From an uncultured Thermoleophilia bacterium (GTDB lineage: Bacteria > Actinomycetota > Thermoleophilia > UBA2241), in the NCBI GenBank assembly GCA_963791345.1, contig CAWBRS010000021.1:208225-272224 (forward strand): DNA of 64,000 nucleotides, given 5' to 3'. Positions 3,227 to 42,252 of the stretch are shown here, piece by piece. Numbering within the stretch: the first letter of the stretch is position 1; each line of letters opens with the position of its first letter. The notes below the pieces were generated by a model. It saw only the letters and a list, made by a program, of their open reading frames with translations, was not told the DNA's origin and made no database searches. Made by a program: the position numbers and the translations under genes.

Positions 3227-3596
3227 GGGGGTGACATCGAGCCTCCGCGAGGGGTCACTGCCGCCCGGTAGCGTACCCGCCCGCGGCGGCCCGTCGCAAC
3301 CGGGAAGCAGGACGGCGGCGGTCCGGCTTCTCGACCGGCCTCCGGGGCGCGCGGCGACCCGCGGCGAGCGGGCGAAGACGGCGGCGGCCGCTCCGGGGGC
3401 CGCGGAAGGTCGGGGGCCGCGCACCCTCGTAGAGGTGGCGCCGCTTCGGCCCGCCGCGGCGCGATCGTGCACCCCGGCGGACGCGTGACGTCATCCCCCC
3501 TACCCCATCGTCGACCTTCGCGGCCGGGCGGCGCGCCCGTAGCATCGGTGGCGCGCCGGCCGGCGTCATCGGCACTCACACGACAGGGGGTCACCC

Positions 3597-4391
3597 GTGG
3601 ACCAAGCCACCCCGCTCACCAACAGCGAGCGCCGCGACGACGTCGCCTACCTCGCCGAGTCCTTCGCCGCCGCCGCCCGCCGACCCACGCCCGTCCTCGA
3701 CGACGAGGCCTGCGCGCGGTTCGCCGAGGCCGACGCCGACGAGCAGGCGAGTCTCTTCTTCACGCTGCTCTGCTACGGCGCCCTCGCCGCCCAGCCGGCG
3801 CCCGAAGCCGTCGTCGACGCCGACTGGCGGCGCTTCGTCGACGCCGACGTCGTCGGGCGCGTCTTCGCCGGCGAGTTCGACCTGCGCGACTACGCCATCG
3901 ACCCGCCGGTCTCGCGCAGCGACAGCAAGGGCAAGATCATCGACTTCGTGCGCCTCGCCGAGACGCGCGACACCTGGTCGCGCCTGCTCCCGCAGCCGGC
4001 CGAGCCCGAGGTCGTCGTCGACGTCCTCTACGCCGCTTCCGGCGGCGCGCTCAAGTCGCGCGCCTTCTGGGTCGTGCGCGAGATGCGCCGCCTCGGCCTC
4101 TGGCATGAGGAGGCGCTCGACCGCTTCGCCTTCGTGCCCGACGGGCGCGTGCGCAAGCGCTCGGTGCGCATGGGGCTGATCGACCTCCCCGAGAAGGCCG
4201 ACACCTTCGCCGACATGAAGGCCGTCTCCCGCGCCCTGCACGCCGTCATGCGCCTCAACGGCGACGGCGCCGCGGGGTTCGACCTGCCGGTGAGCTGGGC
4301 GGCGCAGCGCTGCGAGCTCTGCGACGCCGCCCGCATGGCCTCGTGCCCCGTGCCGCACTGCCGCTGGCGGCGCAGCCACGCGGCGGCCTGA
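3597..4391 (+). CDS. Hypothetical protein, possibly HhH-GPD-like, with a C-terminal CX2CX7CX4C cluster
   Basis: Intact 264-aa ORF with a GTG start after AGGGGG. FVPDGRVRKRSVRMGLID resembles the PVDTHVxRVxxRLGL helix-hairpin-helix segment of EndoIII-type glycosylases. The C-terminus reads CELCDAARMASCPVPHC. Confidence 0.55.
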   Translation: MDQATPLTNSERRDDVAYLAESFAAAARRPTPVLDDEACARFAEADADEQASLFFTLLCYGALAAQPAPEAVVDADWRRFVDADVVGRVFAGEFDLRDYAIDPPVSRSDSKGKIIDFVRLAETRDTWSRLLPQPAEPEVVVDVLYAASGGALKSRAFWVVREMRRLGLWHEEALDRFAFVPDGRVRKRSVRMGLIDLPEKADTFADMKAVSRALHAVMRLNGDGAAGFDLPVSWAAQRCELCDAARMASCPVPHCRWRRSHAAA

Positions 4392-4473
4392 CGACGGGGC
4401 GGGCCGGTCGCGTCCACGCCGGCGCGATCGCCGCGTGAAGGCGGTGCGGCCGGTCGGGTCGCGGCGCACGAGC

Positions 4474-4511
4474 GAGGCCGGAGCGGGCGGGTATCCGCCC
4501 GCTCCGGCCTC
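4474..4511. terminator. GC-rich hairpin between convergent genes
   Basis: Perfect 17-bp stem gaggccggagcgggcgg / ccgcccgctccggcctc with a 4-nt loop. There is no U-tract. Confidence 0.5.
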
Positions 4512-4515
4512 GCCG

Positions 4516-7038
4516 TCACAGCACCGTGATCACGCACCTCTTGACTTCGTACTGCGGGTTGCCGGCCTGGTCGACCGCCTTGAAGGTGGCGATGTACTTG
4601 CGCCGCGCCGGCGGCGTCCAGGCGGCGACGTGCGTCACGCCGGTGGTCACCCAGCCGAGGTAGAGCATCTTCACCACGACGCCGTCGCTGGCCCGCGCGA
4701 TGGTCACCGTCACCTTGGCCGTCGGGCTCCAGGCGTCGGACACGCTGTAGCGCATGCGCACCGTCGAGCCCAGGGTCACCGCTGCGGTCAGCGGCGCCGT
4801 GATGCGCGGCTTGGTGCGGTCGAGCGTCACGTTCTTGGCGACCGTCGAGGCTCCGAGCGCGCCGACCGCCTCGACCCGGGCGCGGTACACCTCGCTGGCG
4901 AGGGCGAGGCCGGCGTCGTCGAGCCCGTCCCAGGTCACGCCGTGCACCCCGGCGGCGAGCTCGCCGAGCTCGAGCGTGCGCACGACGACACCGTCGAGCA
5001 GGATCAGGGCGCGCGTCGTCGCCGGGCGCGTGAGCGTGAACCCCAGCAGCGTCTCGTCCTTCACCGCGTCGCCGTTGGGCGAGAACGAGGGTGGCGCGGG
5101 CGTGAGGTAGCCGACCGTCAGGTCGAGCCGCACGGGCAAGACCGTCACGCCCGTGTTGCCCGCCGGGTCGCGCACCTCGAGCTTGACCTGGTAGGCCCCC
5201 TCCGGCGCGCGCTTGAGCACGTCGTCGACGGGGATCTTGCCGTCCCACGGCACGGTCACGCGCGTCGTGCCGACGCTCTTCCAGCCGACGAGCTTGATCA
5301 GGAGCGTGCCTGCCTCGTCGAGCACCGAGACCCGCATGACGACCGGCTCGGCGCACTTGAACTTGAGGCGGGCGGTGTCGATGAAGGCGTCCCCGTTCGG
5401 GCTGAAGAACTGGGACCCCATGGCGCACTCGACCGGCACGGGGGCGGCCGTGTCGACCACGACCTCCATCGTCGCGGCCCGCGCCGTCCCCTGCGGGCTC
5501 GTCGCCGAGACCACCATCCGGTACGGGCCGTCGGGCACCACCGTGCCGGCGTCCGACATCCCGCCCCAGTCGGTGGAGACGTACTGGCCGCGGCCGGTCT
5601 TGGTGCGCACCACGGTCCCGTCGGCGGCCTTGACCTGCAGCGTCCAGTCGAGCACTTCGGAGCCGACGAAGCTCAGGGTGAGCCCGTCGCGGAAGTCGTC
5701 GCCGTTGGGGCTGATCACCGTGCGGGTGACCTTCACGTTGTAGATCTTCGGCAGCCCCATGCCGCCCACGGTCTTGCGCACGGCGGGCAGCAGCGCGTAG
5801 AAGGCGTCTCCCGGGCAGGCCGTGTAGTTCGCGTTGCGGTGGCCGGAGATGACGTTGAAGGTCACGGTCGAACCCTCCGTGTACTTCTGCGTCGCATAGC
5901 AGACCATCTCGGCCTTCGCCACGGGGTTGATGTGGTGCACGTCGAGCTTCCACGCCAGGAGGCGCTTGAGCGAGGTCATGGCGGCGCTCGGCGGAGTCAC
6001 GGTGCCGAAGCTCCCGATGACCGAGATGCCGGTGCTCGAGGTGTTGAACCCGTACGTCTGGGCGCCGATCGGCGCGTTGGTGATCCCGCCGTAACGGCCC
6101 TCGTAGATGACCCCGTAGCGGTCGATCAGGAAGTTGTAGCCGATGTCGCTCCAGTCGAGCGCGTGCGTGTGGTAGTAGTAGATGCCGCGCACGATGGCCG
6201 GGGCGTCGGCGGCCGAGTACGAGTTGCTCCCGGCGGTGTGGTGCACGAAGGCCATCTTGAGGGGCGCGAAGTCGGGGCTGCCCGTGCGCCAGTCCTCGTT
6301 GGCCCCCCACTGGCTGCGCAGCATGATGGCCGGCTTCGTGGTCATCGCCTGCGCCTCGGGTGCCGGGGTGAGGCCGCCGAGCGTGCAGGCGACGCTCCGC
6401 GCCGCGTTCGTGAGCGTGTCCGCCAGCGTCGCGTCACCGCTCGTGTTGAGGAAGACGAGGCGCGGCCCCGGCACCCGGCGACGGGTCCCGTCCGCCGCCG
6501 TCACCGCGACCTGCACGAAGCGCGCCTCGCCCAGCCAGACCGGGTCGGTGAAGGCGCGCGGGGCCTGCCCGCCCTCCTCGGCGACGCGCTCGACGGGCGC
6601 CGCGACCCACTCGCCCCAGGAGCGGCCGTCGGCGCTGGCCCTGAAGTGCACGGTGAGCGCGTCGACGCCGGCGGCGTCGTCGCAGAGGAGGCCGACCATC
6701 TCGTAGCGCATGCCGGCGTCGATGCGACTCACGGCCGCGCCGGCGGGCGGCGCGTCCGTCACCGCCGCGGGGTCCGCCGCCGCGTCGGCCAGCTTCTCTG
6801 CCGTCGCACCGGCGGCCGCCTCGGCGGCCGTGCCGCCCGCCGCTTCAGCGGCGCGCGTGACGATGAGGGGGTCTTCGGGGGCGACGGTCTTCGCCCGCAC
6901 CGGCGGCGCCGTGAGCCACGCGGCCGCAGCGGCGCTGACGCGCGGCACCGACCACAGGGCGCCCAGGGCGAGGCCGGTGACGATCGTGACGGCCGCGAAA
7001 CGACGGGCGCGGCCGGAGATGGCGGACGTCGCTCTCAT
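4516..7038 (-). CDS. Secreted N-acetylmuramoyl-L-alanine amidase (Amidase_2/PGRP fold) with several FlgD-Ig-like repeats
   Basis: Intact 840-aa ORF with a GGGGGAG RBS and signal-like N-terminus RRFAAVTIVTGLALGALW. Amidase core motifs are FVHHTAGSN, GYNFLIDRYG and ISGHRNANYTACPG. Repeated ISPNGDDFRDG / FSPNGDAFIDT / FSPNGDAVKDE modules follow. Confidence 0.85.
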   Translation of the reverse strand: MRATSAISGRARRFAAVTIVTGLALGALWSVPRVSAAAAAWLTAPPVRAKTVAPEDPLIVTRAAEAAGGTAAEAAAGATAEKLADAAADPAAVTDAPPAGAAVSRIDAGMRYEMVGLLCDDAAGVDALTVHFRASADGRSWGEWVAAPVERVAEEGGQAPRAFTDPVWLGEARFVQVAVTAADGTRRRVPGPRLVFLNTSGDATLADTLTNAARSVACTLGGLTPAPEAQAMTTKPAIMLRSQWGANEDWRTGSPDFAPLKMAFVHHTAGSNSYSAADAPAIVRGIYYYHTHALDWSDIGYNFLIDRYGVIYEGRYGGITNAPIGAQTYGFNTSSTGISVIGSFGTVTPPSAAMTSLKRLLAWKLDVHHINPVAKAEMVCYATQKYTEGSTVTFNVISGHRNANYTACPGDAFYALLPAVRKTVGGMGLPKIYNVKVTRTVISPNGDDFRDGLTLSFVGSEVLDWTLQVKAADGTVVRTKTGRGQYVSTDWGGMSDAGTVVPDGPYRMVVSATSPQGTARAATMEVVVDTAAPVPVECAMGSQFFSPNGDAFIDTARLKFKCAEPVVMRVSVLDEAGTLLIKLVGWKSVGTTRVTVPWDGKIPVDDVLKRAPEGAYQVKLEVRDPAGNTGVTVLPVRLDLTVGYLTPAPPSFSPNGDAVKDETLLGFTLTRPATTRALILLDGVVVRTLELGELAAGVHGVTWDGLDDAGLALASEVYRARVEAVGALGASTVAKNVTLDRTKPRITAPLTAAVTLGSTVRMRYSVSDAWSPTAKVTVTIARASDGVVVKMLYLGWVTTGVTHVAAWTPPARRKYIATFKAVDQAGNPQYEVKRCVITVL

Positions 7039-7163
7039 GACTCCCCCTCAGTGTCGACAGCTGCGGCGGCTTGCCTTAGCCGCTCTTCGGCCCCGGAGAG
7101 CGCGATTCCTCCGTGCGGGCGCGGACCTCCGCCGGCGGGCGGGCGCGCGGACCTCCGCGTAAC

Positions 7164-7202
7164 GGGCGGGGGCGCCGGCGCTGCGCGCCGGCGCCCCCGC
7201 CC
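7164..7202 (-). terminator. GC-rich hairpin downstream of the radical SAM gene
   Basis: 17-bp stem gggcgggggcgccggcg / cgccggcgcccccgccc, located about 10 nt after the stop at 7212. Confidence 0.45.
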
Positions 7203-7211
7203 CAGGCCGCG

Positions 7212-8648
7212 TCAGTGGACGCCGACCGTCTCGTCATCCATCGTCTCGGCCCCGAGCGCACTGCGGCTCGCCACCGGGCCGTGCCCGTTGCCGCCGGCCT
7301 CGCGCCCGGCGACGTAGCAGTCCCAGACCGGGGCGTAGACCCGGTCGACCTCGGTCGAGTACTCGTCGATGTCGCGGCTCAGCTCGGTGAAGAGGCTCTC
7401 CGCCCCGGGGTGCGTCGGCCGGGCTCCGGTGAGCGCCATGATCTCCCGCGACTGGTGGGGGTTGTCGATGAGCATGCACGGCTTGAACAGGTTGTGGCTG
7501 AACGGCTGCCGGCTGCGGATCTCGCGGAAGAAGGGCGAGTTGAAGGCGTCGGCGAGACTCGTGTCGCGGATGTTGTCGGTGGCGAAGTGGGTGAAGATGC
7601 AGGGCTCGACCCAGCCCTCGCTGTCGATGTGCATGTAGTGCTTGCCGGCGATGCAGCCCTGGACGTACGGCGCGTCGCCCCAGAAGTCGACCGTGAAGAT
7701 GGGCTTCGTGTCGCGGAGGCGCCAGATGCCCTCGCGGAAGGCGTTGCGCTCCTCCGCCGTCAGCATCGGCGCCACGCTCGGGTCGCGGCCGATCGGCATG
7801 TAGAGGAAGTTCCAGCTGAGCACGGCCCCGCGGGCGACGAGCGGGTCGACCCACTCGTCGCTGACCAGCATGCGCCAGTTGTCGCGCGTCACCGTGGCCG
7901 AGTAGCCGTAGAGCACGCCGCGCTCGCCGAGCAGGTCCATCATCGCGAGGAGGTGGCGGTAGACGCCCTTGCCGCGGCGCGCGTCGGTCGACGCCTCGTC
8001 GCCCTCGAGGCTGAGCATGGGGGCGACGTTGCCGAGCCCGGCGAGCTCGTCGACCAGGCGCTCGTCGAGCAGCGTGCCGTTCGTGTACACCTGGAAGTAG
8101 CACTCCTGGTTCGCCGCCGCGAGATCGAGCAGCCCGTCGTACATGAACGGTTCGCCGCCGAGGATGGTGAAGAAGTAGACGCCCATCTCGTTGGCCTGCT
8201 CGACGATGCTCTGCAGCAGCTCGGGCTCGAGGTCCTGGTCGGGGGAGTACTCACCGGCGAAGCAGCCCGCGCAGCTCAGGTTGCAGCGCATGGTCGGGCT
8301 GATGAGGATCGTCGTCGGCGCCCAGAGACCCGGGGCCTGGGCCATGAACTCCTTCCGCTTGGCGACGCCGCGAAGAAGCGTGTTGATGATAAGGCACTCG
8401 ATGAAACGCTCGCGGCACTTCGGACTGAGGTCCCGGCTCACGTGGCGGGCGATGCCCAGGGCGGGGTGATCCGCCTCGATCTGGCCCTTGACGTGACGAA
8501 CGACGCCCTTGTACTCGTCGGGGGTGACCTTCTCGGCCAGCTGCATCGTACGCAGGATCTTCTTCTTGTCGCCGCTGCCGGCCATCTTCAGCATCTCGTT
8601 GATGATGCGTCGCTGCACGCTGCTGTAGAGGCCCGATGTGCGGCTCAT
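7212..8648 (-). CDS. Radical SAM enzyme with a C-terminal auxiliary-cluster (SPASM/twitch-like) region
   Basis: Intact ORF. The CNLSCAGC (CX3CX2C) motif follows ISPTMR. Later cysteines lie in GCIAGKHYMHIDSEGWVEPCIF..KPCM. The ATG at 8648 is preceded by GGAGGG. Confidence 0.85.
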   Translation of the reverse strand: MSRTSGLYSSVQRRIINEMLKMAGSGDKKKILRTMQLAEKVTPDEYKGVVRHVKGQIEADHPALGIARHVSRDLSPKCRERFIECLIINTLLRGVAKRKEFMAQAPGLWAPTTILISPTMRCNLSCAGCFAGEYSPDQDLEPELLQSIVEQANEMGVYFFTILGGEPFMYDGLLDLAAANQECYFQVYTNGTLLDERLVDELAGLGNVAPMLSLEGDEASTDARRGKGVYRHLLAMMDLLGERGVLYGYSATVTRDNWRMLVSDEWVDPLVARGAVLSWNFLYMPIGRDPSVAPMLTAEERNAFREGIWRLRDTKPIFTVDFWGDAPYVQGCIAGKHYMHIDSEGWVEPCIFTHFATDNIRDTSLADAFNSPFFREIRSRQPFSHNLFKPCMLIDNPHQSREIMALTGARPTHPGAESLFTELSRDIDEYSTEVDRVYAPVWDCYVAGREAGGNGHGPVASRSALGAETMDDETVGVH

Positions 8649-9037
8649 CGCACCCTCCCTCCCCTCCGCGCGGCCGCGCCCTACGGTCGCGCGGTGACGT
8701 CGTCGGCGGTGCACGGGCACGACCAGGGGCGCCGCCGCGGCCCGGACCGCGCCCTCGGCCCGCCGGTGCCCTCGGCCCGCCCGTGCAGGCGGCCGGTGTG
8801 CAAAGAGTCTACCACCCGAAGGGCCGCCCGAGCCTGTTGCGTGCCCGCCGTCGCACCGAACGGGTGCCGGCGGCCTCGAGGCGGCGGTACGGCGAGTGTC
8901 GCAGCGGGCGTGCCGGCGGGTGCCGGCGGGCGCTCAGGCGTACGCCGGCGGGCGCCGCAGCCGGGCCCGTCGCCCGGGCGGCTACACGTACCCTGCCAAT
9001 TCGTCTAAGGAGTCAGGCACGCGCGCCGATACAGACA

Positions 9038-9124
9038 CAGAGCGAGAAGGGCAAACCTGTCGTGAGGCAGGGACGCAAAGCCAGAGGTCTTGGATGCTCA
9101 AGATAGCTCGGTTGCCGAATTCAG
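9038..9124 (+). promoter_or_regulatory. Candidate c-di-GMP-I (GEMM-I) riboswitch aptamer
   Basis: GGGCAAACC (9049-9057), a 6-bp stem CCUGUC/GGCAGG closed by the GNRA loop GUGA, GGGACGCAAAGCC (9070-9082) and a 3' strand AUAGCUCGGUUGCCGAAU. This matches the Vc2-type signature as I remember it. It lies 127 nt upstream of the ATG at 9251. Confidence 0.7.
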
Positions 9125-9250
9125 ACACCGTGGTCTTCTGCCTCCACCCCTTGCCGCGCACTCCCGCCTCCCGGGCATCCTGAGACCGGTCGCCCGCTCG
9201 GCGCCCGGACGCGGGCGACGAGAGGAGCCCCCCGAGTGGAGGCGAGTGAG

Positions 9251-10946
9251 ATGAGAAGGCACATCCTTACCCTTGCGGTCCTGGCGCTGCTGTGCGCCGC
9301 CGTCTGGCCGGCGGCCGCGGCGGCCGGCGACCAGGGGCTCGGCGCCGCCGTCGACGAGAGCGTCGTCGTGGCGCTCGACGCCGCCGAGGGCGAGGCGGTG
9401 CCCGTCATCGTGTTCGCCCCCGGCCACCTCGGCGACGTCGGCGCGCAGCTGCCGAAGGGCGTCGAGGTGACGGAGCTCGCCGCCGTCGACGCCGTCGCCG
9501 TGTGGCTGAGCGCGCGGCGAGATCGCCGAGCTCGGCGACGAGCCGTGGGTCGAGTACATCGTCGCCGACAACCCCGTCTACGGGATCGGCGTCGCCGCGA
9601 TGGACGTGACCAACCTCGCCATCGGGCTCGGCGACCTCGCCGCGCTCGGGGCCGACGCCCCCGCCGGGCGCGGCGTCACCGTCGCCGTGATCGACAGCGG
9701 CGTCACCGTGCACGACGACCTCGGCGACGAGCGCCTGGTCGGCTGGCGCGACTTCGTGAAGCGCCGGAAGGAGCCGTACGACGACGCCGGCCACGGCACC
9801 TTCGTCGCCGGCCTCATCGCCGGCGACGGCAGCGCCTCGCTGCCGCTCGACGAGGGCGGCTTCGCCACCGTGCAGTTCCGCGGCGTCGCACCGGCCGCCG
9901 ACATCGTCGCCGTCAAGGTCCTCGACAAGTTCGGCCGCGGCCGCGCCTCGAGCCTGATCGCCGGCATCCTCTGGGCGGTCGAGCAGCGCGACGCCCTCGG
10001 CATCGACGTCATGAACATCTCGGTCGCCGGCACGCCGGCCGGCCCGGTCGAGGTGGACCCTGTGGCGCAGGCCGTGCGGACCGCCTGGGAGGCCGGGATC
10101 ACGGTCGTCTGCGCGGCCGGCAACGAGGGCGAGTTCGGCCTCGGCGGCATCCTCAGCCCCGGCAACGAACCGCACGTGATCACCGTCGGGGCCACCGACA
10201 CCAAGGAGACACCCGAGGTGGCCGACGACCGCGTCGCCGCCTACAGCTCCTACGGCCCGACCCTGTACGACGAGTACGCCAAGCCCGACCTCGTCGCCCC
10301 GGGCAACCGCAACATCTCGCTGCGCACGCCGGGCAGCTACATCGACAAGACCTTCCCCGAGAACGTCATCCCCGTGGAGGACTACTGGGACGCGGACGCC
10401 CTGGCGGCGGTGTCGCCCGCGCCGGAGTCCGACTACCTCATGCTCTCCGGCACCAGCACGTCGGCACCGGTGGTCGCCGGCGCCGCCGCCCTGATGCTCG
10501 AGGACGACCCCGAGCTCACGCCCGACGACGTCAAGGTGCGCCTCATGGCGAGCGCCGACCCGGTGCCCGGTGACGGCGGGCGACGCCTACACGCCAGCAG
10601 GGCGCCGGCACGATCGACGTGCCCGAGGCGCTGTCGCTCGACGACCTGTACGCCGACGGCCCGGCGCTCTCGGCCGACCTCGGCGACGGCGACGACGATC
10701 CTGCCGACCGACGTGTACCTGAGCTGGGCGAAGTACGCCTGGACGAAGTACGCGTGGACGAAGTACGCGTGGAGCAAGTACGCCTGGACCAAGTACGCGT
10801 GGACGAAGTACGCCTGGACCAAGTACGCGTGGACGAAGTACGCCTGGACCAAGTACGCGTGGACGAAGTACGCCTGGACGAAGTACGCCTGGACCAAATA
10901 CGCGTGGACCAAGTACGCGTGGACGGTGCTGATCGAGGGGCAGTGA
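9251..10946 (+). CDS. Secreted subtilisin-like serine protease (peptidase S8) with a C-terminal (KYAWT)n repeat; frameshifted as sequenced
   Basis: Signal peptide MRRHILTLAVLALLCAAVWPAAAAAG and an I9-like propeptide are present. The catalytic triad motifs are VAVIDSGV, HGTFVAG and SGTSTSAPVVAG. The frame switches near 9515, 10575-10620 and 10690. Confidence 0.85.
10725..10926 (+). repeat. 15-bp tandem repeat, about 13.5 copies, with an underlying 30-bp alternation, encoding (KYAWT)n
   Basis: tgg-acg/acc-aag-tac-gcc/gcg is repeated in frame. Variation is almost entirely at synonymous third positions, with one Thr-to-Ser change. Confidence 0.95.
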
Positions 10947-12479
10947 CCGGGGTCGCTCAGAGCGAGCGTCCCGGCGAGACGGCCGCGCGCACGCACGCGG
11001 CCGTCTCGCTCTACGTCGCCCTCATCGCGACGGCCGCCGTCGCCGCGGGGCTGCTGGCGGTGCTCCGCGACCCGTCGCCGCTGCCTCTCGACCTGCGTCG
11101 CCTTCGTCGCCCTCGCGACGGTGACCGACCTGCGGGAGGTCCGCTTGCCGGTCGTCGGCGTCGTCACGCTCTCCTTCGTGCCGGTGCTCGCGGCGCTCAT
11201 CGTCTTCGGCCTCTGGCCGGCCCTGCTCGTCGCCGCCGTCTCCGGCCTCGCCACCGCGTGGTTCACCCGCGACCCGGTGAAGATCCTCTTCAACGCCGCC
11301 AACTACGCCCTGTCGACGTTCCTCGCCGGGCTCGTCTACCTGGCTCTCGTCCCGGCCGGCGAGCAGCTCCTCGACAAGGTCCTGCCGACCTTCGCCGCGA
11401 CCGCCGTGGACTTCTTCGCCAGCACCGTCATGCTCGCCGGCGTCGTCGCCATGGCCAGCGGCGAGCGCGCCCTGCGCATCTGGCGGCAGAACTACCAGTG
11501 GGGCCTGCCGAGCTACCTGACGGGCTCGACCATCGCCCTGCTCGTCGCCTGGCTCTACCTCGCCTTCGGCATCGCCGGCCTGATCCTCGTCCTGCCGCCG
11601 CTCTACCTCATCTACTACTCGTACGACATCTACGTGAAGCGCGTGCGCGACACGGCCGCCTTCGGCGCCGAGATCGCCTCCTTCAAGGAGGAGCTCGTCG
11701 CCTCGACCGCCCTCCACGACGAGCTCCGCGCCACGCAGACCAAGGTCGCCGCCGAGATCGAGCGCGCGCGCCGCATCCAGCACGACCTGCTGCCCGCGGC
11801 GGCCCCCGACGTGCCGGGCCTCGCCCTCGAGCAGCGGATCGAGTTCCTCGGCGAGATGGGCGGCGACTACTACGACTACCTCGACTTCGGCGACGGCCGC
11901 CTCGGGGTGGTCTGCGGCGACGTCATGGGCAAGGGCCTCGCCGCCGCCCTGATCATGGCGATGGCGCGCTCGCTCCTGCACGACGCCGTCGCCCCGGGGC
12001 GCTCGCCGGGCGACGTGCTGCACGACGTCAACGAGTCGCTCTCCCGCGACCTCGAGGGGCAGAGCCTCCCCTACTTCCTCACCCTCACCCTCCTCGCCTA
12101 CGACCCGGACGTCCGCACCGCCACGGTGGCGAGCGCGGGTCACAACCCCGTGCTGGTGCTGGGCGAGGACGGCGCGCGGCGCCTGCCGGCGCAGGGCGCC
12201 GTCCTCGGCGTGCGCGCCGGACTCGACTTCCCCGAGGACGTCATCGCCCTCGGCCCCGGGGACCGGCTGGCGCTCTACACCGACGGCCTGACCGAGGCGC
12301 GGGCGCCGGGCGGCGAGCTCTTCGGCGTCGACCGGCTGGAGGAGTCGCTGGCACGCTGCCGTGGCCGCAGCCTCGGCGACGCGCTCGGGGCGACCTGGGC
12401 TGAGGTCGCCGCCTTCCGCGGCGAGACGCCTGCCTCCGACGACGCCACCCTCCTGCTGCTGGAGGTGGCGGCGCGATGA
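10943..12479 (+). CDS. Membrane-anchored PP2C-family (SpoIIE/RsbU-like) serine phosphatase
   Basis: The part 11121-12479 is an intact 452-aa ORF with multiple TM helices, then RRIQHDLLP, GGDYYDY, VVCGDVMGKG, LYTDGLTEA and ASDDATLLLLEV. A likely N-terminal extension starts at the GTG at 10943, which overlaps the protease stop (GTGA), with one frame break near 11090. Confidence 0.75.
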
Positions 12480-13295
12480 AGACCATCGACGAGATCCGCC
12501 CCGACGAGCGCGAGGTGCAGGTGACGCCCGAGGACGGACCGCTGCCCTGCTCCCTGCACGTCTACCGCTACCGCCGCGCCGGCGGCCGCATCGAGGCGGT
12601 GGTCGGCGCCTACGACGCCGGGCTGCCCGAGGAGGACCTGATCGCCCAGGCCGACGAAGCGCTCGAGCGGGCGACCTTCATGTGTTACGCGGTCGCCCAG
12701 GCCGGGGACTTCGTCGAGGACGAGCTCTGCTTCGTCCCCTGCGGCGAGCACTGCGAGATCCTCAGCATCCACACCAACGGCTGGCAGCGTCACTACGGCG
12801 ACCACCGCCGCAGCCTGATCGAGATCCTCAGCGATCTCGCGGCGGCCGTCGCCTGCGGCCGCCTCCGGCTCCTCGACACCGACCAGCTCGCGGCCGAGGC
12901 CGCGGCCGGCGACGAGCTGCTGCACATGGCGATCGACGAGCCGCGCGCGCTGAGCAAGGCGCGGCGCGCGGTCGACGCCCGCCTCACTGCCGAGGGGCTC
13001 GACCCCGCCCTGCGGCGCACCACCCTCCTCCCCATCTCCGAGGCCGTCACCAACATGCTCCTCCACGGGGGCGGCTCGGGTGAGCTCACGTTGCGCCGCC
13101 TGCCCGACCGCCTGCGCGCCGTGGTCAGCGACCGCGGCCCCGGGCCTCAACTTCCTCAACTGGATCGAACCGCCCGACGTGAGCGGGCAGGCGTCCATGG
13201 GCTACGGCTTCAAGATCATCACCGAGAACCTCGACGTCGTCGGGCTGCACACGCGGCCCGCCGGCACCACTCTGCTCCTTGACCGTATCGTCTGA
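12476..13295 (+). CDS. RsbW/SpoIIAB-like anti-sigma-type serine kinase (HATPase_c_2) with an extra Cys-containing N-terminal domain; one frameshift
   Basis: The start overlaps the upstream stop (ATGA). The C-terminal half reads ISEAVTNMLLHGGGSGELTLRR..VSDRGPG | LNFLNWIEPPDVSGQASMGYGFKIITENLD..LLLDRIV, with a frame break near 13145. The N-terminal ~130 aa contain CFVPCGEHC. Confidence 0.7.
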
Positions 13296-13319
13296 CGAGG
13301 TAGGAAATCATGTTGCAGA
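13274..13319 (+). repeat. Copy A of a 46-nt imperfect direct repeat (kinase 3' end / RBS / STAS start)
   Basis: The core gaccgtatcgtctgacgaggtagg (13281-13304) is identical to 16334-16357. Confidence 0.9.
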
Positions 13320-13624
13320 CATCGATAGTCCCCGGTCCCGCCCCCACCATCTTCCTCGCCGGCGAGATGGACCTCGACTGCGCCGACGGGCTGCGCTCCG
13401 CCGTCGCGGGCGCCGCCCGCGGCGCCCAGGCCGTGACGCTCGACTTCAGCGGCGTCGAGTTCATCGACTCGTCGGGCACGGGCATCTTCGTGCGCCTCTG
13501 TCTCGATCTGAAGAGCCAGGGCGTGCCGGTGGTGGCCCGCAACCTGACCGCGCCCGTGCACGGCGTCTTCGAGATGCTGCGCGTGCGCGAGCTGGTCGGC
13601 GAGGACGTGCTGCCGGTCGCCTGA
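13310..13624 (+). CDS. STAS-domain anti-sigma-factor antagonist (RsbV/SpoIIAA-like)
   Basis: Intact 104-aa ORF. TLDFSGVEFIDSSGTGIFV carries the conserved phosphorylatable DSSG serine. A GAGGTAGG RBS precedes the start. Confidence 0.85.
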   Translation: MLQTSIVPGPAPTIFLAGEMDLDCADGLRSAVAGAARGAQAVTLDFSGVEFIDSSGTGIFVRLCLDLKSQGVPVVARNLTAPVHGVFEMLRVRELVGEDVLPVA

Positions 13625-13766: not shown

Positions 13767-15005
13767 CTACTGACAGAAGGCCACCAGGAACTCGTCCCAG
13801 TTGGTCTGGGCACCGAAGGCCAGCGTCGTGCGGTAATCGGTCAGATTGTCGGCCGTGTAGCCCTTGAGCTGGGTCGCGGTGCTCGGCCACCAGATGGCGA
13901 CGCCCTTCGCCTTCGCGACCTTGCTCGAGCCGTTCGTCCAGTTGAGCGTGACATCGCTGGTCACGGCCGCCATCACCGCGTCGCACTTGGCCTTGATGAG
14001 CGCGTCGGCCACCTTGAGCTTGATCTGGTAGGCGGCGTCGTAGAGGTCCTTCTCGGTCTTGTCGGTGAACATCTGCGTGTTCTTCCACGCCGTGAGGTAG
14101 GCGCTCTTGTAGACCGGCAGTCCGGCCGTGAGGGCGATCGCCCACTGATCGACGGCCGTCTTCAAGGTGGTGAAGCGCGTGTCGAGCGCCAGCGACGAGT
14201 ACGTGATGCTGTCACCCAGGGCGGTCGCGGCGATCTTGTCGCTGACCTGCTGGGCGGTCATCGTCGGCGTGGCGCGGATCGCGCTGATGACCTGGTCGTA
14301 CTGGATGCCCTCCCAGTTGGTGTACTGCTCGGAGCCGGCCATCGCCTGGGCGTAGGGCTGCCAGTTCGCGGCGATCTCGATCATCTGGCGCTGGCAGCAG
14401 TCCCAAGCGACGGTATCGACGGCGCCGGCCGTCTGCATGGCGGTCACTTGCTCACCGTCGTCGAGGCTGTCGGCGCTGGTGTCGTCGCGCATGTTCCAGT
14501 ACTTGGGGAACCACATGTAGCCGTGGTCCCAGAAGACGAGCAGGTACCTGCTGGCCGGGCAGTTGGCCTTCGTCCAGCTGACGAAATCGCTGAGCGTCTG
14601 AGGGTCGCCCATGTTGCGCTCGCCCCAGTCGGCGACGGCGCTGGGCGCGTCGGGCAGCATGCCCTGGGTGCAGTAGAAGAGCTTGGTCGTCTGCCAGTCG
14701 CCGTACGTCGTGTCGTAGCCGGGCCCGCGGTCGGCGAGGGCGACGACATTGACATCCGCGTTGGAGCCCAGGGCGCTCAGCTCGTCCCTGAGGTCGAGGG
14801 TGACGTAGTTCTCAAGGTTGTTGTCGCCGACGATGTAGACCATCACCGTCCAGGCCTTGGAGGGCTGGGGGAACGTGGTGCTCGCCATCGCCCTGTCCGT
14901 CGTGACGGCGGCTGCGACGACCGTGGCGATCAAGGCGATCGCCGCCACCAGGACGATCGCCGTGGTGGTGGAGCCTCGGTTCGACTGAAGCCTTCTTCCG
15001 AACAT
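13767..15005 (-). CDS. Membrane-anchored clostripain-family cysteine peptidase (peptidase C11-like)
   Basis: Intact ORF. The start is taken at MFGRRLQ after GGAGGAGG. A TM anchor AIVLVAAIALIATVVAAAV is present. Family motifs are WTVMVYIVGDNNLE, LLVFWDHGY and VAWDCCQRQM (His/Cys dyad context). Confidence 0.75.
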   Translation of the reverse strand: MFGRRLQSNRGSTTTAIVLVAAIALIATVVAAAVTTDRAMASTTFPQPSKAWTVMVYIVGDNNLENYVTLDLRDELSALGSNADVNVVALADRGPGYDTTYGDWQTTKLFYCTQGMLPDAPSAVADWGERNMGDPQTLSDFVSWTKANCPASRYLLVFWDHGYMWFPKYWNMRDDTSADSLDDGEQVTAMQTAGAVDTVAWDCCQRQMIEIAANWQPYAQAMAGSEQYTNWEGIQYDQVISAIRATPTMTAQQVSDKIAATALGDSITYSSLALDTRFTTLKTAVDQWAIALTAGLPVYKSAYLTAWKNTQMFTDKTEKDLYDAAYQIKLKVADALIKAKCDAVMAAVTSDVTLNWTNGSSKVAKAKGVAIWWPSTATQLKGYTADNLTDYRTTLAFGAQTNWDEFLVAFCQ

Positions 15006-15191
15006 GGAATAGCCTCCTCCGTTGGACTGTCCACGACTCACACCCGCGTCGTCTCGTGACGACCTGGATCACTGGGGCAGTGTGATGATTCACCGGAGCG
15101 AGGAGCGCCGCAAGCACAGACTGACGCCGGTGTACGTATGAATGGTATCTTGGCGAAGGTTGCGTGAATGTAGGTACGGCAGGGGGGGATC

Positions 15192-39954: not shown

Positions 39955-42252
39955 CTACTCCCCTCGCTCCCACGCCGCCTCGCGGGCGCGGGCGACGTAG
40001 TGCTCCTGGGCGTCGAGCGGCGTCTCGTCGGGCCCCGGGCTGAGACGCTCCCAGCTGCCGTCCGGGTGGAGCACACGGCCCTTCACGTTGTCGGCGAGGT
40101 AGGTGGCGAGGATGTCGTCCCTGATCTGGCGCACGATGCCGCGGTCGAGCACCGGGAAGAGGATCTCGACGCGACGGTTCAGGTTGCGCGGCATGAGGTC
40201 GGCGCTGCCCAGCAGCACCTCCTCGTCGCCGCCGTTGCGGAACCAGTAGATGCGGCTGTGCTCGAGGAAGCGGCCGACGATGCTCTTCTCGGTGATGTTC
40301 TCGCTGACCCCCGGGATGCCGGGTCGCAGGCAGCACATCCCGCGCACGATGAGCTCGACCTTCACGCCGGCCTGCGAGGCCCGGTAGAGCCTGCGGATCA
40401 TCGGCTTGTCGACGAGGGAGTTCATCTTGAAGACGAGGTGCGCCTCCTCCCCGCGCCGCGCGTGCTCGATCTCGCGGTCGATGCGCTCGGCGACCTGGCG
40501 GCGCATGTGCTGCGGGGCGACGAGGAAGCGCCGGTACTGCACCTCGGCGGCGTAGCCGGTGAGGGCGTTGAAGACGGCGGACGCGTCGGCGCCCATGTCC
40601 TCGTCGCAGGTGAGGTAGCCGAGGTCGGTGTACTGGCGCGTGGTGACGCTGTTGTAGTTGCCGGTCCCGAGGTGGACGTAGCGCCGCACGCGGCCGCCCT
40701 CGCGACGCACGATGAGCATGATCTTGGAGTGCGTCTTGAGGCCGAGGAGGCCGTAGACGACGTGCACGCCCTCGTGCTCGAGCGCCCGCGCCCAGCCGAT
40801 GTTGCTCTCCTCGTCGAAGCGCGCCTTGAGCTCGAGCAGGACGGCGACCTGCTTGCCGTTGCGCGCCGCCTCCATGAGCTGCTCGACGACCGGCGCGTTG
40901 CGGCCCACGCGGTAGAGCGTCGTCTTGATGGCCAGCACGTCGGGGTCGTCGGCCGCGGCGCGCAGCAGCTCGACGACGGGGTCGAACGAGTCGTACGGGT
41001 GATGGAGCAGCACGTCGCGCTGACGGATGGCGGCGAAGAGGTCGGTGCCCTCGACGCCCTCGAAGGCCGCCGGCAGCGATTGCACGAGCGGCGCGTACTT
41101 GAGGTCGGGGCGGTCGACGTCGGCCGCGCCCCAGAGGCTGCTCAGGCCGAGCGGCGCCGCCACCGGGTAGAGCTCGTCCTCGGTGAGCTCGAGGTTCTCG
41201 CGCAGGATGTGACGCACGTGCTCGGGCATCGTGTCGTCGATGGTCACGCGGATGACCGAGCCGAAGCGGCGCCGCTGGACGAAGGCCTCGATCGTCTCGA
41301 GGAGGTCGTCGGCCTCGAGCTCCTGGATCGCGAGCTCGGCGTCGCGCGTCACCCGGAAGGGGTGCGCCTCGAGCACCTCGAGCCCCGGGAAGAGGGCGTC
41401 GAGGTTGGCGGCGATGACCTCCTCGAGCCAGGTGAACCAGCGCTCGCCCTCGGCGGCCGGTGCCTCGGGGCGCCGGCCGGCGGCGGGCGCCGGCGCCGGC
41501 ACCAGCCGCGGCAGCGACCGCGGCACCTTGACGCGCGCGAAGCGCGTCTCGCCCTGCGGGTCGCGGATCAGCACGGCGAGGTTGAGGCTCATGTTGGAGA
41601 TGTGCGGGAACGGCCGCCCGGGGTCGAAGGCGAGCGGCGTGAGGACCGGGTAGACCTGCTCGTCGAAGTAGGCGCGGAGCGCCACGCGCTGCCCCTCGTC
41701 GAGGGCGTCGTGGCCGACGATGTGGATGCCGGCCGCCTCGAGCTCGGGCAGCAGCTCGCTGAAACAGTGGCGCGCGTCCTTCATGAGCTGCCAGGCGCGC
41801 TCGCGCACGAGCGGCAGCAGCCGCTGCGGCGTGTAGCCGTCGGCGGACTCCTCGGTCACGCCGGCCTCGACCTGCTGGCGCAGGCCGGCGATGCGCACCA
41901 TGAAGAACTCGCCCAGGATCGAGCCGATGATGCCGACGAACTTGACGCGCTCGAGCAGCGGGTTGCCGGGGTCGCGCGCCTCGTCGAGCACGCGCTCGAA
42001 GAAGTCGAGCATGCTGAGCTCGCGGTTGGTGTAGAGCTCGGGGCGCCGCAGATCGGCGTCGGGGTCGGTCTCGGGTGCGACCGCGGTCTCGGCGGACGCC
42101 GTGACGTCGCCGTCACTCGCCGCCGCTGCTGCCTCGGTGGCCTCGACCGCGGCAGCCGGGGCTCCCGTCGAGTCCGTCGTCGCGCCCGCGGCGGCCTCCG
42201 TCGCCGGCGCCGCCGTCATCTTCTCCTCCACGAGTGCCTCCCCGTCCGGCAC
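39955..42252 (-). CDS. ppk: Polyphosphate kinase 1
   Basis: Intact 765-aa ORF. Motifs YTNRELSMLDFFERVL, FFMVRIAGL, HSKIMLIVRREGGRVRRYVHLGTGNYN and GSADLMPRNLNRRVE. Confidence 0.92.
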   Translation of the reverse strand: MPDGEALVEEKMTAAPATEAAAGATTDSTGAPAAAVEATEAAAAASDGDVTASAETAVAPETDPDADLRRPELYTNRELSMLDFFERVLDEARDPGNPLLERVKFVGIIGSILGEFFMVRIAGLRQQVEAGVTEESADGYTPQRLLPLVRERAWQLMKDARHCFSELLPELEAAGIHIVGHDALDEGQRVALRAYFDEQVYPVLTPLAFDPGRPFPHISNMSLNLAVLIRDPQGETRFARVKVPRSLPRLVPAPAPAAGRRPEAPAAEGERWFTWLEEVIAANLDALFPGLEVLEAHPFRVTRDAELAIQELEADDLLETIEAFVQRRRFGSVIRVTIDDTMPEHVRHILRENLELTEDELYPVAAPLGLSSLWGAADVDRPDLKYAPLVQSLPAAFEGVEGTDLFAAIRQRDVLLHHPYDSFDPVVELLRAAADDPDVLAIKTTLYRVGRNAPVVEQLMEAARNGKQVAVLLELKARFDEESNIGWARALEHEGVHVVYGLLGLKTHSKIMLIVRREGGRVRRYVHLGTGNYNSVTTRQYTDLGYLTCDEDMGADASAVFNALTGYAAEVQYRRFLVAPQHMRRQVAERIDREIEHARRGEEAHLVFKMNSLVDKPMIRRLYRASQAGVKVELIVRGMCCLRPGIPGVSENITEKSIVGRFLEHSRIYWFRNGGDEEVLLGSADLMPRNLNRRVEILFPVLDRGIVRQIRDDILATYLADNVKGRVLHPDGSWERLSPGPDETPLDAQEHYVARAREAAWERGE

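Follow-up and report, generated by a model that had tools for sequence, protein, structure and literature searches.

A predicted class-I c-di-GMP riboswitch at the head of a subtilase and partner-switching operon in an uncultured Thermoleophilia bacterium

Introduction

RNAs that sense cyclic diguanylate (c-di-GMP), a second messenger, through a class-I (GEMM-I) aptamer are the described systems closest to the element considered here, which lies in the 5' leader of a four-gene operon within a stretch of 64,000 nucleotides of DNA (contig CAWBRS010000021.1, hereafter the window) from an uncultured Thermoleophilia bacterium. The Cd1 RNA of Clostridioides difficile is a class-I OFF switch placed before the flagellar flgB operon, and acts by transcription termination. 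Riboswitches for cyclic AMP-GMP (c-AMP-GMP; GEMM-Ib) carry an A in place of the G at position 20, and a further group, the GGC variant class, was proposed from bioinformatics and reportedly may sense another ligand. The position-20 A of the c-AMP-GMP riboswitches is also alluded to in PMC9481103. In the numbering of the Vc2 RNA, the pairs C22-G45, G14-C93 and C44-G83 and the J2/3 nucleotides A47-A49 have been reported, with ligand contacts at G20, A47 and C92 (PMC3764141, PMC4744006). Among the class-I criteria, A47 intercalates between the two guanines of the ligand and C92 forms a Watson-Crick pair with it (PMC3764141).

Control by c-di-GMP may also be exerted by proteins. Thermoleophilia are reported to encode the sigma factor WhiG, present in cultured members, together with a single-motif RsiG, an anti-sigma factor by which WhiG is retained once c-di-GMP has been bound, and the flagellar/WhiG sigma consensus, with TAAA at -35 and GCCGATAA at -10, has been used to find WhiG promoters in Rubrobacter (PMC8325347). 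The locus described below is best explained, in our judgement with somewhat better than balanced confidence, as a functional class-I c-di-GMP riboswitch that leads the four-gene operon and, more tentatively, acts as a translational OFF switch.

A class-I c-di-GMP aptamer in the window

When the whole window was scanned with cmscan against Rfam 15, a single riboswitch match was obtained, on the forward strand at 9041-9120. The match covers model positions 1-80 of 80 of family RF03167 (c-di-GMP-I-GGC) and reaches 69.9 bits (E 1.7e-14), the gathering score of this family being 59 bits; the same aptamer is recovered at E 1e-16 when 8900-9300 is scanned alone, and the match lies far beyond chance level. 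RF03167 is a clan-mate of RF01051 in clan CL00126, and a second member of the clan, most likely RF01051 itself (cut-off 35 bits), also exceeds its own gathering score on this aptamer. A first-pass annotation of the window, made by a model from the letters alone, had proposed a class-I c-di-GMP aptamer here and named RF01051 as the model to try; the scan returned a full-length match within the c-di-GMP-I clan, with RF03167 and not RF01051 as the best model. The strings cited in that annotation are all where it placed them (the aptamer at 9042-9120, GAGGCAG at 9064-9070, CUGCCUCC at 9138-9145, GGAGGC at 9238-9243 and the ATG at 9251), and the AT-richer stretch that it noticed in the spacer is real, GC being 0.55-0.61 over 8980-9140 and 0.73-0.89 in the flanks.

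The window was numbered against Vc2 as given in PMC3764141 and PMC4744006, and all nucleotides that these papers place in ligand or tertiary contacts of Vc2 were found. The guanine-contacting G20 of J1/2 corresponds to 9050, directly 5' of the G21-C46 pair; A47-A49 of J2/3 correspond to the AAA at 9077-9079, which follows GACGC; and C92 of J3/1 corresponds to 9115, after which comes the C93-G14 pair (9116-9044). P1 is formed by 9043-9044 with 9116-9117 (C9116-G9044 and G9117-C9043), C22-G45 falls on 9052-9075 and P3 spans 9079-9113. C44 is 9074 and a bulged G, G9106, stands in P3 at the model position of G83, so that the interhelical C44-G83 pairing may be expected to form here as well. P2 is, as had been claimed, a helix of 6 bp with a GNRA cap: 9056-9061 pairs with 9066-9071 (CCUGUC/GGCAGG; C-G, C-G, U-A, G-C, U-G and C-G) around a GUGA loop at 9062-9065. 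Among 118 family members with the same spacing, four positions of this helix show 5-6 pair types with 99-100% canonical pairing, and the two window strands are consistent with this strongly covarying family helix. Since none of G20, C22-G45, the GNRA loop, C44, A47-A49, the P3 bulged G, C92 and C93-G14 is missing, the ligand pocket is regarded as canonical. The G at 9050 does not agree with an identity as a c-AMP-GMP (GEMM-Ib) riboswitch.

The strands that had been described as identical to those of Vc2-type RNAs, GGGCAAACC and GGGACGCAAAGCC, match the Vc2-like RNA of Vibrio maritimus (L034 in our numbering of loci). With a covariance-model score above threshold, the Vc2 contact nucleotides in place and the aptamer conserved in 51 orthologous leaders, the element at 9041-9120 is almost certainly a class-I aptamer. 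Judged by its sequence, it would be an ordinary c-di-GMP binder, and it constitutes an added member of a known riboswitch family, not a new kind of element.

The GGC variant label

That RF03167 is the best Rfam model, well above its gathering score, could be taken to place the element in the GGC variant class, possibly with another ligand, a reading that we consider extremely improbable. The name GGC is taken here to refer to positions 20, 47 and 92; by the model consensus, a G at the equivalent of A47 would distinguish the variant. The RF03167 consensus at this place is CGCGAAgCc, and the window has CGCAAAGCC, with an A at position 47 (9077) that mismatches an upper-case, well-conserved base; along the aligned strand the consensus GGGACGCGAAgCc faces GGGACGCAAAGCC. 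A genome scan, with one genome per species, used the pattern GGCAAACC..GGGACGC[A/G]AAGCC..TGCCGA, which permits A or G at this position, and A was found in all of at least 121 matches; these span many phyla, and the Vibrio maritimus RNA, plainly related to Vc2, is among them. In 18 control loci with A47, RF03167 was the best model for 16 of the 19 aptamer matches (61-78 bits), that of Vibrio maritimus included, and RF01051 for the other three; the match to RF03167 was likewise obtained in 11 of 11 orthologs rescanned with Rfam. Because A47 controls and orthologs receive the same label, the label does not discriminate. It arises here from the short P3 and from the G next to C92 on its 5' side rather than from the pocket, and the variant reading was rejected as an artefact of model competition, 9077 being an A where the consensus has G. 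This exposes an annotation pitfall, in that RF03167 outcompetes RF01051 on many canonical aptamers, and ordinary riboswitches are thereby automatically mislabelled as unknown-ligand variants.

Conservation of the leader and distribution of class-I aptamers

The comparison covers 51 distinct orthologous leaders, drawn from genome-derived loci and from 46 metagenome loci retrieved with an ortholog-specific P3 pattern. In the window the aptamer lies on the same strand as the S8 protease gene, in its 5' leader, and ends 130 nt before the start codon; the arrangement recurs in the 51 leaders. The stretch of the aptamer that runs from GGCAAA to GCCGA is essentially unchanged, and variation is restricted to the P3 loop, one or two wobble positions of P2 and the flanks of P1, while in the same set the identity of the S8 proteins falls to 63-70% and the remaining leader diverges into several subgroups. 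The closest relatives of the S8 domain are proteins 84-90% identical from metagenome-assembled genomes (MAGs) named Thermoleophilia. Locus L114 keeps the aptamer with a leader of only 50 nt that has no C-rich tract, and the ortholog L130 (4800-5010, on a 1.37-Mb contig) keeps the operon with a leader of about 55 nt from which the aptamer is absent, a natural riboswitch-less version.

It had been supposed that such riboswitches are rare in high-GC actinobacteria. This is contradicted by the genome scan in which, among the matches listed, many belong to Solirubrobacteraceae, Acidimicrobiales and other actinobacterial MAGs. In other Actinomycetota MAGs, class-I aptamers precede, in three cases, genes for CAP-domain secreted proteins, and otherwise genes for glycoside hydrolases, for a sulfatase and for an HD_5/HD-GYP-type protein (loci L001, L008, L035, L027, L059, L032 and L102), the HD_5 (HD-GYP-type) gene behind a class-I aptamer being that of L027, and an Actinotalea locus (L026) carries two aptamers about 600 nt apart. 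Since they are found before such varied other genes, class-I riboswitches are common in Actinomycetota MAGs, though little discussed in the literature searched.

The operon downstream

Pfam bore out the functions that had been given to the four genes behind the aptamer, all on the forward strand. The first (9251-10946) encodes a secreted subtilase (Peptidase_S8) with a signal peptide, a propeptide, the S8 domain and a C-terminal (KYAWT)n repeat; the second (10943-12479), whose start overlaps the S8 stop codon, a MASE9 plus SpoIIE/PP2C phosphatase; the third (12476-13295) an RsbW/SpoIIAB-like kinase of the HATPase_c_2 type; and the fourth (13310-13624) an anti-anti-sigma-like protein recognised by its STAS domain match. 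The partner-switching gene set is thus present in order (PF07228, PF13581, PF01740/PF13466), and no sigma factor gene was found in the operon or next to it, either in the window or at 10 orthologous loci. All 10 of the orthologous loci fetched show a divergent radical-SAM/SPASM gene, a spacer, and then S8, SpoIIE-family PP2C, HATPase_c_2 kinase and STAS genes, the stop and start codons usually overlapping; the S8 proteases have 519-563 aa, and MASE9 is on record in one of the 10. It is very probable that the riboswitch controls the S8/PP2C/kinase/STAS operon in cis.

The reading frames of this operon are broken. Relative to a 92%-identical locus (L121), one base is inserted at each of 9516, 10697, 11095 and 13138, and 11 nt are inserted at 10581; these five breaks disrupt the frames of the protease (at about 9516, 10581 and 10697), the phosphatase (11095) and the kinase (13138). 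A relic aptamer before a decaying, pseudogenised operon would agree with the presence of five breaks within 4.1 kb and of none in the three upstream genes. Breaks are, however, not confined to the operon: by a codon-phase scan, switches of phase on the same strand occur throughout the window, further frame-broken regions lie at 18.6-22 kb, 29.8-35.7 kb and 50.4-53.5 kb, and by Pfam an acetyl-CoA synthetase, an H+-PPase, a TrkH and a permease/Usp gene are also split. Moreover, all but one of the five operon breaks are insertions of one base, split genes occur in sister long-read assemblies too, and the aptamer is intact and matches those of relatives whose operons are intact. Given the phase switches across the window, the other split genes and the sister assemblies, indels of assembly are the better explanation, and the five breaks are most likely long-read assembly errors. 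The pseudogene reading was accordingly rejected on the window-wide breaks and the split genes of the sister assemblies, and a relic is regarded as very improbable.

The C-terminal repeat of the S8 protein is encoded by a 15-nt tandem repeat of 13.5 copies at 10724-10925. In L114 this end of the protein carries WTKFRWTKDVD-type repeats in place of (KYAWT)n. The Trp-rich S8 C-terminal repeat region matched no Pfam family, and the (KYAWT)n repeat may possibly serve in surface or cell-wall attachment.

A WhiG-type promoter motif upstream of the aptamer

A sequence resembling a WhiG/sigma-28 promoter, TAAG-N15-GCCGATAC, lies on the forward strand at 9006-9032 and stops 8 nt short of the aptamer. 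Against TAAA-N15-GCCGATAA it shows 2 mismatches, a tolerance that follows PMC8325347, and sites with at most two mismatches number 2 in the window against 0.29 expected. The other site, at 40398-40424 on the reverse strand, is inside the coding region of a polyphosphate kinase and is probably a chance match. In the orthologous leaders the core G[CT]CGATA is present in 51 of 51 and matches the sigma consensus together with a T-A-rich tetramer 15-16 nt upstream; at most two mismatches to the full consensus are seen in 30, and in 35 the first position of the aptamer follows the end of the -10 element at 7-8 nt. The motif is kept at the same spacing in the aptamer-less L130, as CTCATCTTCC-N11-GTCGATAC, and no TATCGGC-type complement of GCCGATA is conserved in the orthologous leaders, and both points suggest that the GCCGATA block is better seen as a DNA signal than as part of the RNA fold; a role in RNA structure was considered and found unlikely on the same two grounds. 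The scan gave no sigma-70-like promoter site. Whether a WhiG-type promoter drives the operon is, on the strength of the motif and its conservation, an even bet.

A second motif, GGCTAC-N16-CGTCTA, lies a little further upstream (8980-9007, forward strand). The form G[GC]NAC...CGTCTA occurs in 33 of the 51 orthologous leaders, and AC-N16-CGTCTA occurs once in the window against 0.81 expected. We presume a likeness to the promoters of extracytoplasmic-function (ECF) sigma factors, so that the motif may be an ECF-type promoter or another protein-binding site.

The leader as a possible expression platform

The 130 nt that separate the aptamer from the S8 start codon are asymmetric in composition. 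They begin with a C-rich, G-poor tract (9121-9200, forward strand; C 47.5%, G 22.5%), a bias found across all 50 long orthologous leaders (C 44%, G 24%), and the remainder is G-rich and ends in the Shine-Dalgarno (SD) sequence GGAGGCGA, which with the ATG is conserved in the orthologous leaders (9238-9253, forward strand; GGAGG at 9238-9242, ATG at 9251). The tract contains two anti-SD-like CCUCC elements. The first, CUGCCUCC (9138-9145, forward strand), had been singled out earlier as the switch element; it is complementary to the SD as well as to the P2 3' strand (9064-9070), and in the minimum-free-energy (MFE) fold it disrupts the aptamer by pairing with 9064-9071. Of the orthologous leaders, the 7 closest alone have it. 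The second, UCCCGCCUCC (9162-9171, forward strand), is the homologue of an anti-aptamer block, GCGUCCC..CCUC(AC), of other subgroups, and pairs with the SD inside a long hairpin in the MFE fold whether or not the aptamer is forced. A G+C-rich hairpin, UCGCCCGC/GCGGGCGA (9190-9218, forward strand), lies within the long-range helix that sequesters the SD and has no U tail; the leader scan found no terminator-like hairpin followed by a U tail.

The SD region GUGGAGGCGA nearly duplicates the aptamer strand GUGAGGCAGG, and one C-rich strand can therefore serve both. Pairing of this kind would suit an OFF switch in which bound ligand frees the anti-SD, and a translational OFF switch is taken as the single most likely mechanism, although it is held only tentatively because the folding and shuffle tests are mixed. 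Transcription would probably start a few nucleotides upstream of P1, from the WhiG/sigma-28-type promoter, for which a start 6-9 nt past the -10 element would be expected, and the mRNA would begin with the aptamer or close to it. For each of the C-rich strands at 9138-9145 and 9162-9171 there are two possible partners, the G-rich P2-3'/J2-3 strand in the aptamer (GAGGCAGGGA) and the nearly identical SD region (GGAGGCGAG). In the ligand-free RNA a C-rich strand would invade the aptamer; upon c-di-GMP binding the aptamer would be locked, and the C-rich strands would be freed to occlude the SD, lowering translation of the operon. While the identity of the aptamer, its pocket nucleotides, its conservation and its linkage to the operon are shown, it is inferred which class of promoter is used, in which direction the switch acts and that translation is the level of control.

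The related leaders give this scheme more support than the window does. Duplex z-scores were computed against dinucleotide shuffles, and the blocks homologous to UCCCGCCUCC, located 46-64 nt after the aptamer, reach z = -2.8 to -4.7 in eight related leaders; in several subgroups they form a complement of 15-16 nt to GUGAGGCAGGGACGC at a fixed place, with z-scores in the same range. When the aptamer is forced in the 51 leaders, the unpaired probability of the SD falls in about 25, rises in 2 and is unchanged in the rest, the mean passing from 0.31 to 0.23. The MFE partners of the aptamer and of the SD overlap in 5 of the 51. The switch helix first proposed has no statistical support in the window, where pairing of CUGCCUCC is not above shuffles; the general scheme, in which a C-rich strand takes either the aptamer or the SD as its partner, fares better in related leaders. 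Nor did folding with and without the aptamer constraint show the expected opening and closing, for the window SD is closed either way, held by the second C-rich element at 9162-9171.

Several observations count against the preferred explanation as a whole, and the broken frames described above belong with them. The duplex of CUGCCUCC with the aptamer has z = -0.46 in the window, 27% of shuffles being as good, and for the best SD-pairing site of the window, which includes CUGCCUCC, z is -1.2, with about 10% of shuffles as good. The SD unpaired probability in the window is 0.17 with the aptamer free to unfold and 0.16 with the aptamer forced. Over the whole set of leaders the cost of forcing the aptamer averages 9.06 kcal/mol, no different from the 8.94 in shuffled leaders, and RNAalifold found no compensatory pair in the 7 closest leaders. 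As to the promoter, its -35 element is weak, one subgroup having GTCGATAG with 4 mismatches, and none of the 30 open reading frames scanned in the window (part of one 64-kb stretch) was a whiG, GGDEF, EAL, HD-GYP or flagellar gene. Relatives do carry genes for c-di-GMP turnover (GGDEF next to the operon in L128, HD_5 in L027), which counts in favour of the explanation.

The composition of the leader also bears on Rho-dependent attenuation, in which the C-rich tract of about 80 nt would be a Rho-loading site whose accessibility is set by its pairing with the aptamer, possibly alongside SD occlusion. The C and G contents given above for the window and for the 50 long leaders suit such a site, the ligand-free MFE fold has some of the tract paired with the aptamer, no intrinsic terminator was found, and, as the window SD seems shut whichever state is modelled, control at a further step would be reasonable. 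The C-richness is, however, equally explained by anti-SD strands that pair with the G-rich, SD-proximal half of the leader, and L114 has kept its aptamer with a leader devoid of the tract; Rho-dependent control is rated unlikely, though still a rival to be reckoned with.

Both ON and OFF switches are known among class-I c-di-GMP riboswitches (Vc1, Vc2, Cd1 and the Bc RNAs), and binding of c-di-GMP might conversely open the SD and induce the protease and partner-switching operon. Two of the 51 leaders (L148 and L161) are indeed predicted to open on aptamer formation, but about 25 go the opposite way, none of the close relatives of the window opens, and no anti-anti-SD element was found; an ON switch, which likewise still counts as a rival, is judged quite improbable, and the OFF direction is preferred.

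Since WhiG and RsiG are present in Thermoleophilia and a promoter motif of this type precedes the aptamer, the operon could be under c-di-GMP control twice. Two-tier control in this Thermoleophilia lineage, with an RsiG-WhiG layer at the promoter and a riboswitch in the leader, and with the protease and the partner-switching cascade as output, is conceivable but on the unlikely side. If true, the partner-switching cascade would relay the c-di-GMP signal to a further sigma factor or target, and the deepest-branching actinobacterial classes would possess a c-di-GMP circuit made of both protein and RNA.

Neighbouring genes and other observations

Two of the orthologous loci have, downstream of STAS and at a distance of 0.6-0.7 kb, a large MerR-GAF gene (L124 9631-11340 and L128 9824-11596). 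That of L128 has a GGDEF domain on record and would be a putative diguanylate cyclase adjoining the operon, so that in L128 a putative producer of c-di-GMP and the RNA sensor may be neighbours. On the side held by MerR-GAF in these loci, the window has a gene for a C11 (clostripain-family) peptidase (13767-15041, reverse strand).

Upstream, the neighbourhood at 3543-8648 is conserved in most orthologous loci and comprises genes for a 264-aa protein with no Pfam match, for a cell-wall hydrolase-like protein of about 850 aa with Amidase_2 and FlgD_ig domains, and for a radical-SAM/SPASM protein divergent from the riboswitch. Between the latter and the candidate riboswitch promoter, the divergent spacer contains, at 8736-8964, short tandem repeats that are very rich in G+C and have periods of 10, 17 and 22 nt; this region is poorly conserved, and its length differs from that in L121.

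Elsewhere, L130 carries on its reverse strand (10021-10078), near TrkA-domain genes, an Rfam nhaA-I (Na+) riboswitch match of 44.9 bits against a gathering score of 37; no equivalent match was found in the window, despite several TrkA/TrkH genes at 17.4-27.1 kb. At 48.8-64 kb the window holds a cluster of genes resembling those for [FeFe]-hydrogenase and NuoF, with HATPase/PHP and response-regulator/HisKA genes in between; many of these genes are frame-broken, and the cluster suggests that the host is anaerobic and hydrogen-metabolising.

Comparison with known systems

With Vc2 and RF01051 the element shares the three-helix junction, and G20, A47-A49, C92, C22-G45, C44 and a 6-bp P2 capped by a GNRA loop are identical; two of its strands, as noted, are identical to those of the Vc2-like RNA of Vibrio maritimus. 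It differs from Vc2 in its short P3, with a distal stem of 6 bp and a loop of 6 nt, in its GUGA tetraloop as against GAAA, and in the G found in place of A at the position 5' to C92, as is common across many phyla; the high-GC Thermoleophilia host, the other genes downstream and the long C-rich leader with no intrinsic terminator are further differences. The short P3 and the UGCC 3' junction are shared with the RF03167 model, from which the window departs by an A against the consensus G at position 47, and canonical RNAs routinely exceed the RF03167 cut-off. The understanding of how this riboswitch class works is unchanged by the window element.

As regards Cd1, the analogy would be that of a class-I aptamer lowering an operon tied to the motile or planktonic programme, the link in the window being the WhiG-type promoter motif; Cd1, in contrast, terminates transcription in a low-GC Firmicute, while the window leader has no terminator and its control is probably translational. 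The operon itself resembles the RsbU-RsbW-RsbV and SpoIIE-SpoIIAB-SpoIIAA systems in its PP2C phosphatase of the SpoIIE family, HATPase_c_2 kinase and STAS protein encoded in the same order, and differs from them in that no sigma gene is adjacent, the phosphatase has a MASE9 membrane domain, the kinase carries an unassigned N-terminal region of about 150 aa, and an S8 protease is co-transcribed. In the literature searched there was no report of this association of genes, and what is new is the setting: an uncultured Thermoleophilia, a subtilase with a PP2C/kinase/STAS module, and a WhiG-type motif just upstream, by which a second messenger becomes linked to a secreted subtilase and a partner-switching module.

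The RsiG-(c-di-GMP)-WhiG switch is similar in that promoters of the TAAA/GCCGATAA type are placed under c-di-GMP control in the same classes, including Thermoleophilia and Rubrobacter (PMC8325347); it is a protein anti-sigma system acting on transcription, whereas the window has an RNA sensor behind such a promoter motif. In the literature searched, this protein switch alone had previously been reported for Thermoleophilia, an actinobacterial class that branches early and is mostly uncultured, and the leader described here adds a conserved candidate RNA target of c-di-GMP, its promoter motif suggesting that the same signal may act twice on one operon. Set beside these systems, the aptamer itself is unsurprising, and the noteworthy parts are the possible two-tier circuit and the link to partner switching.

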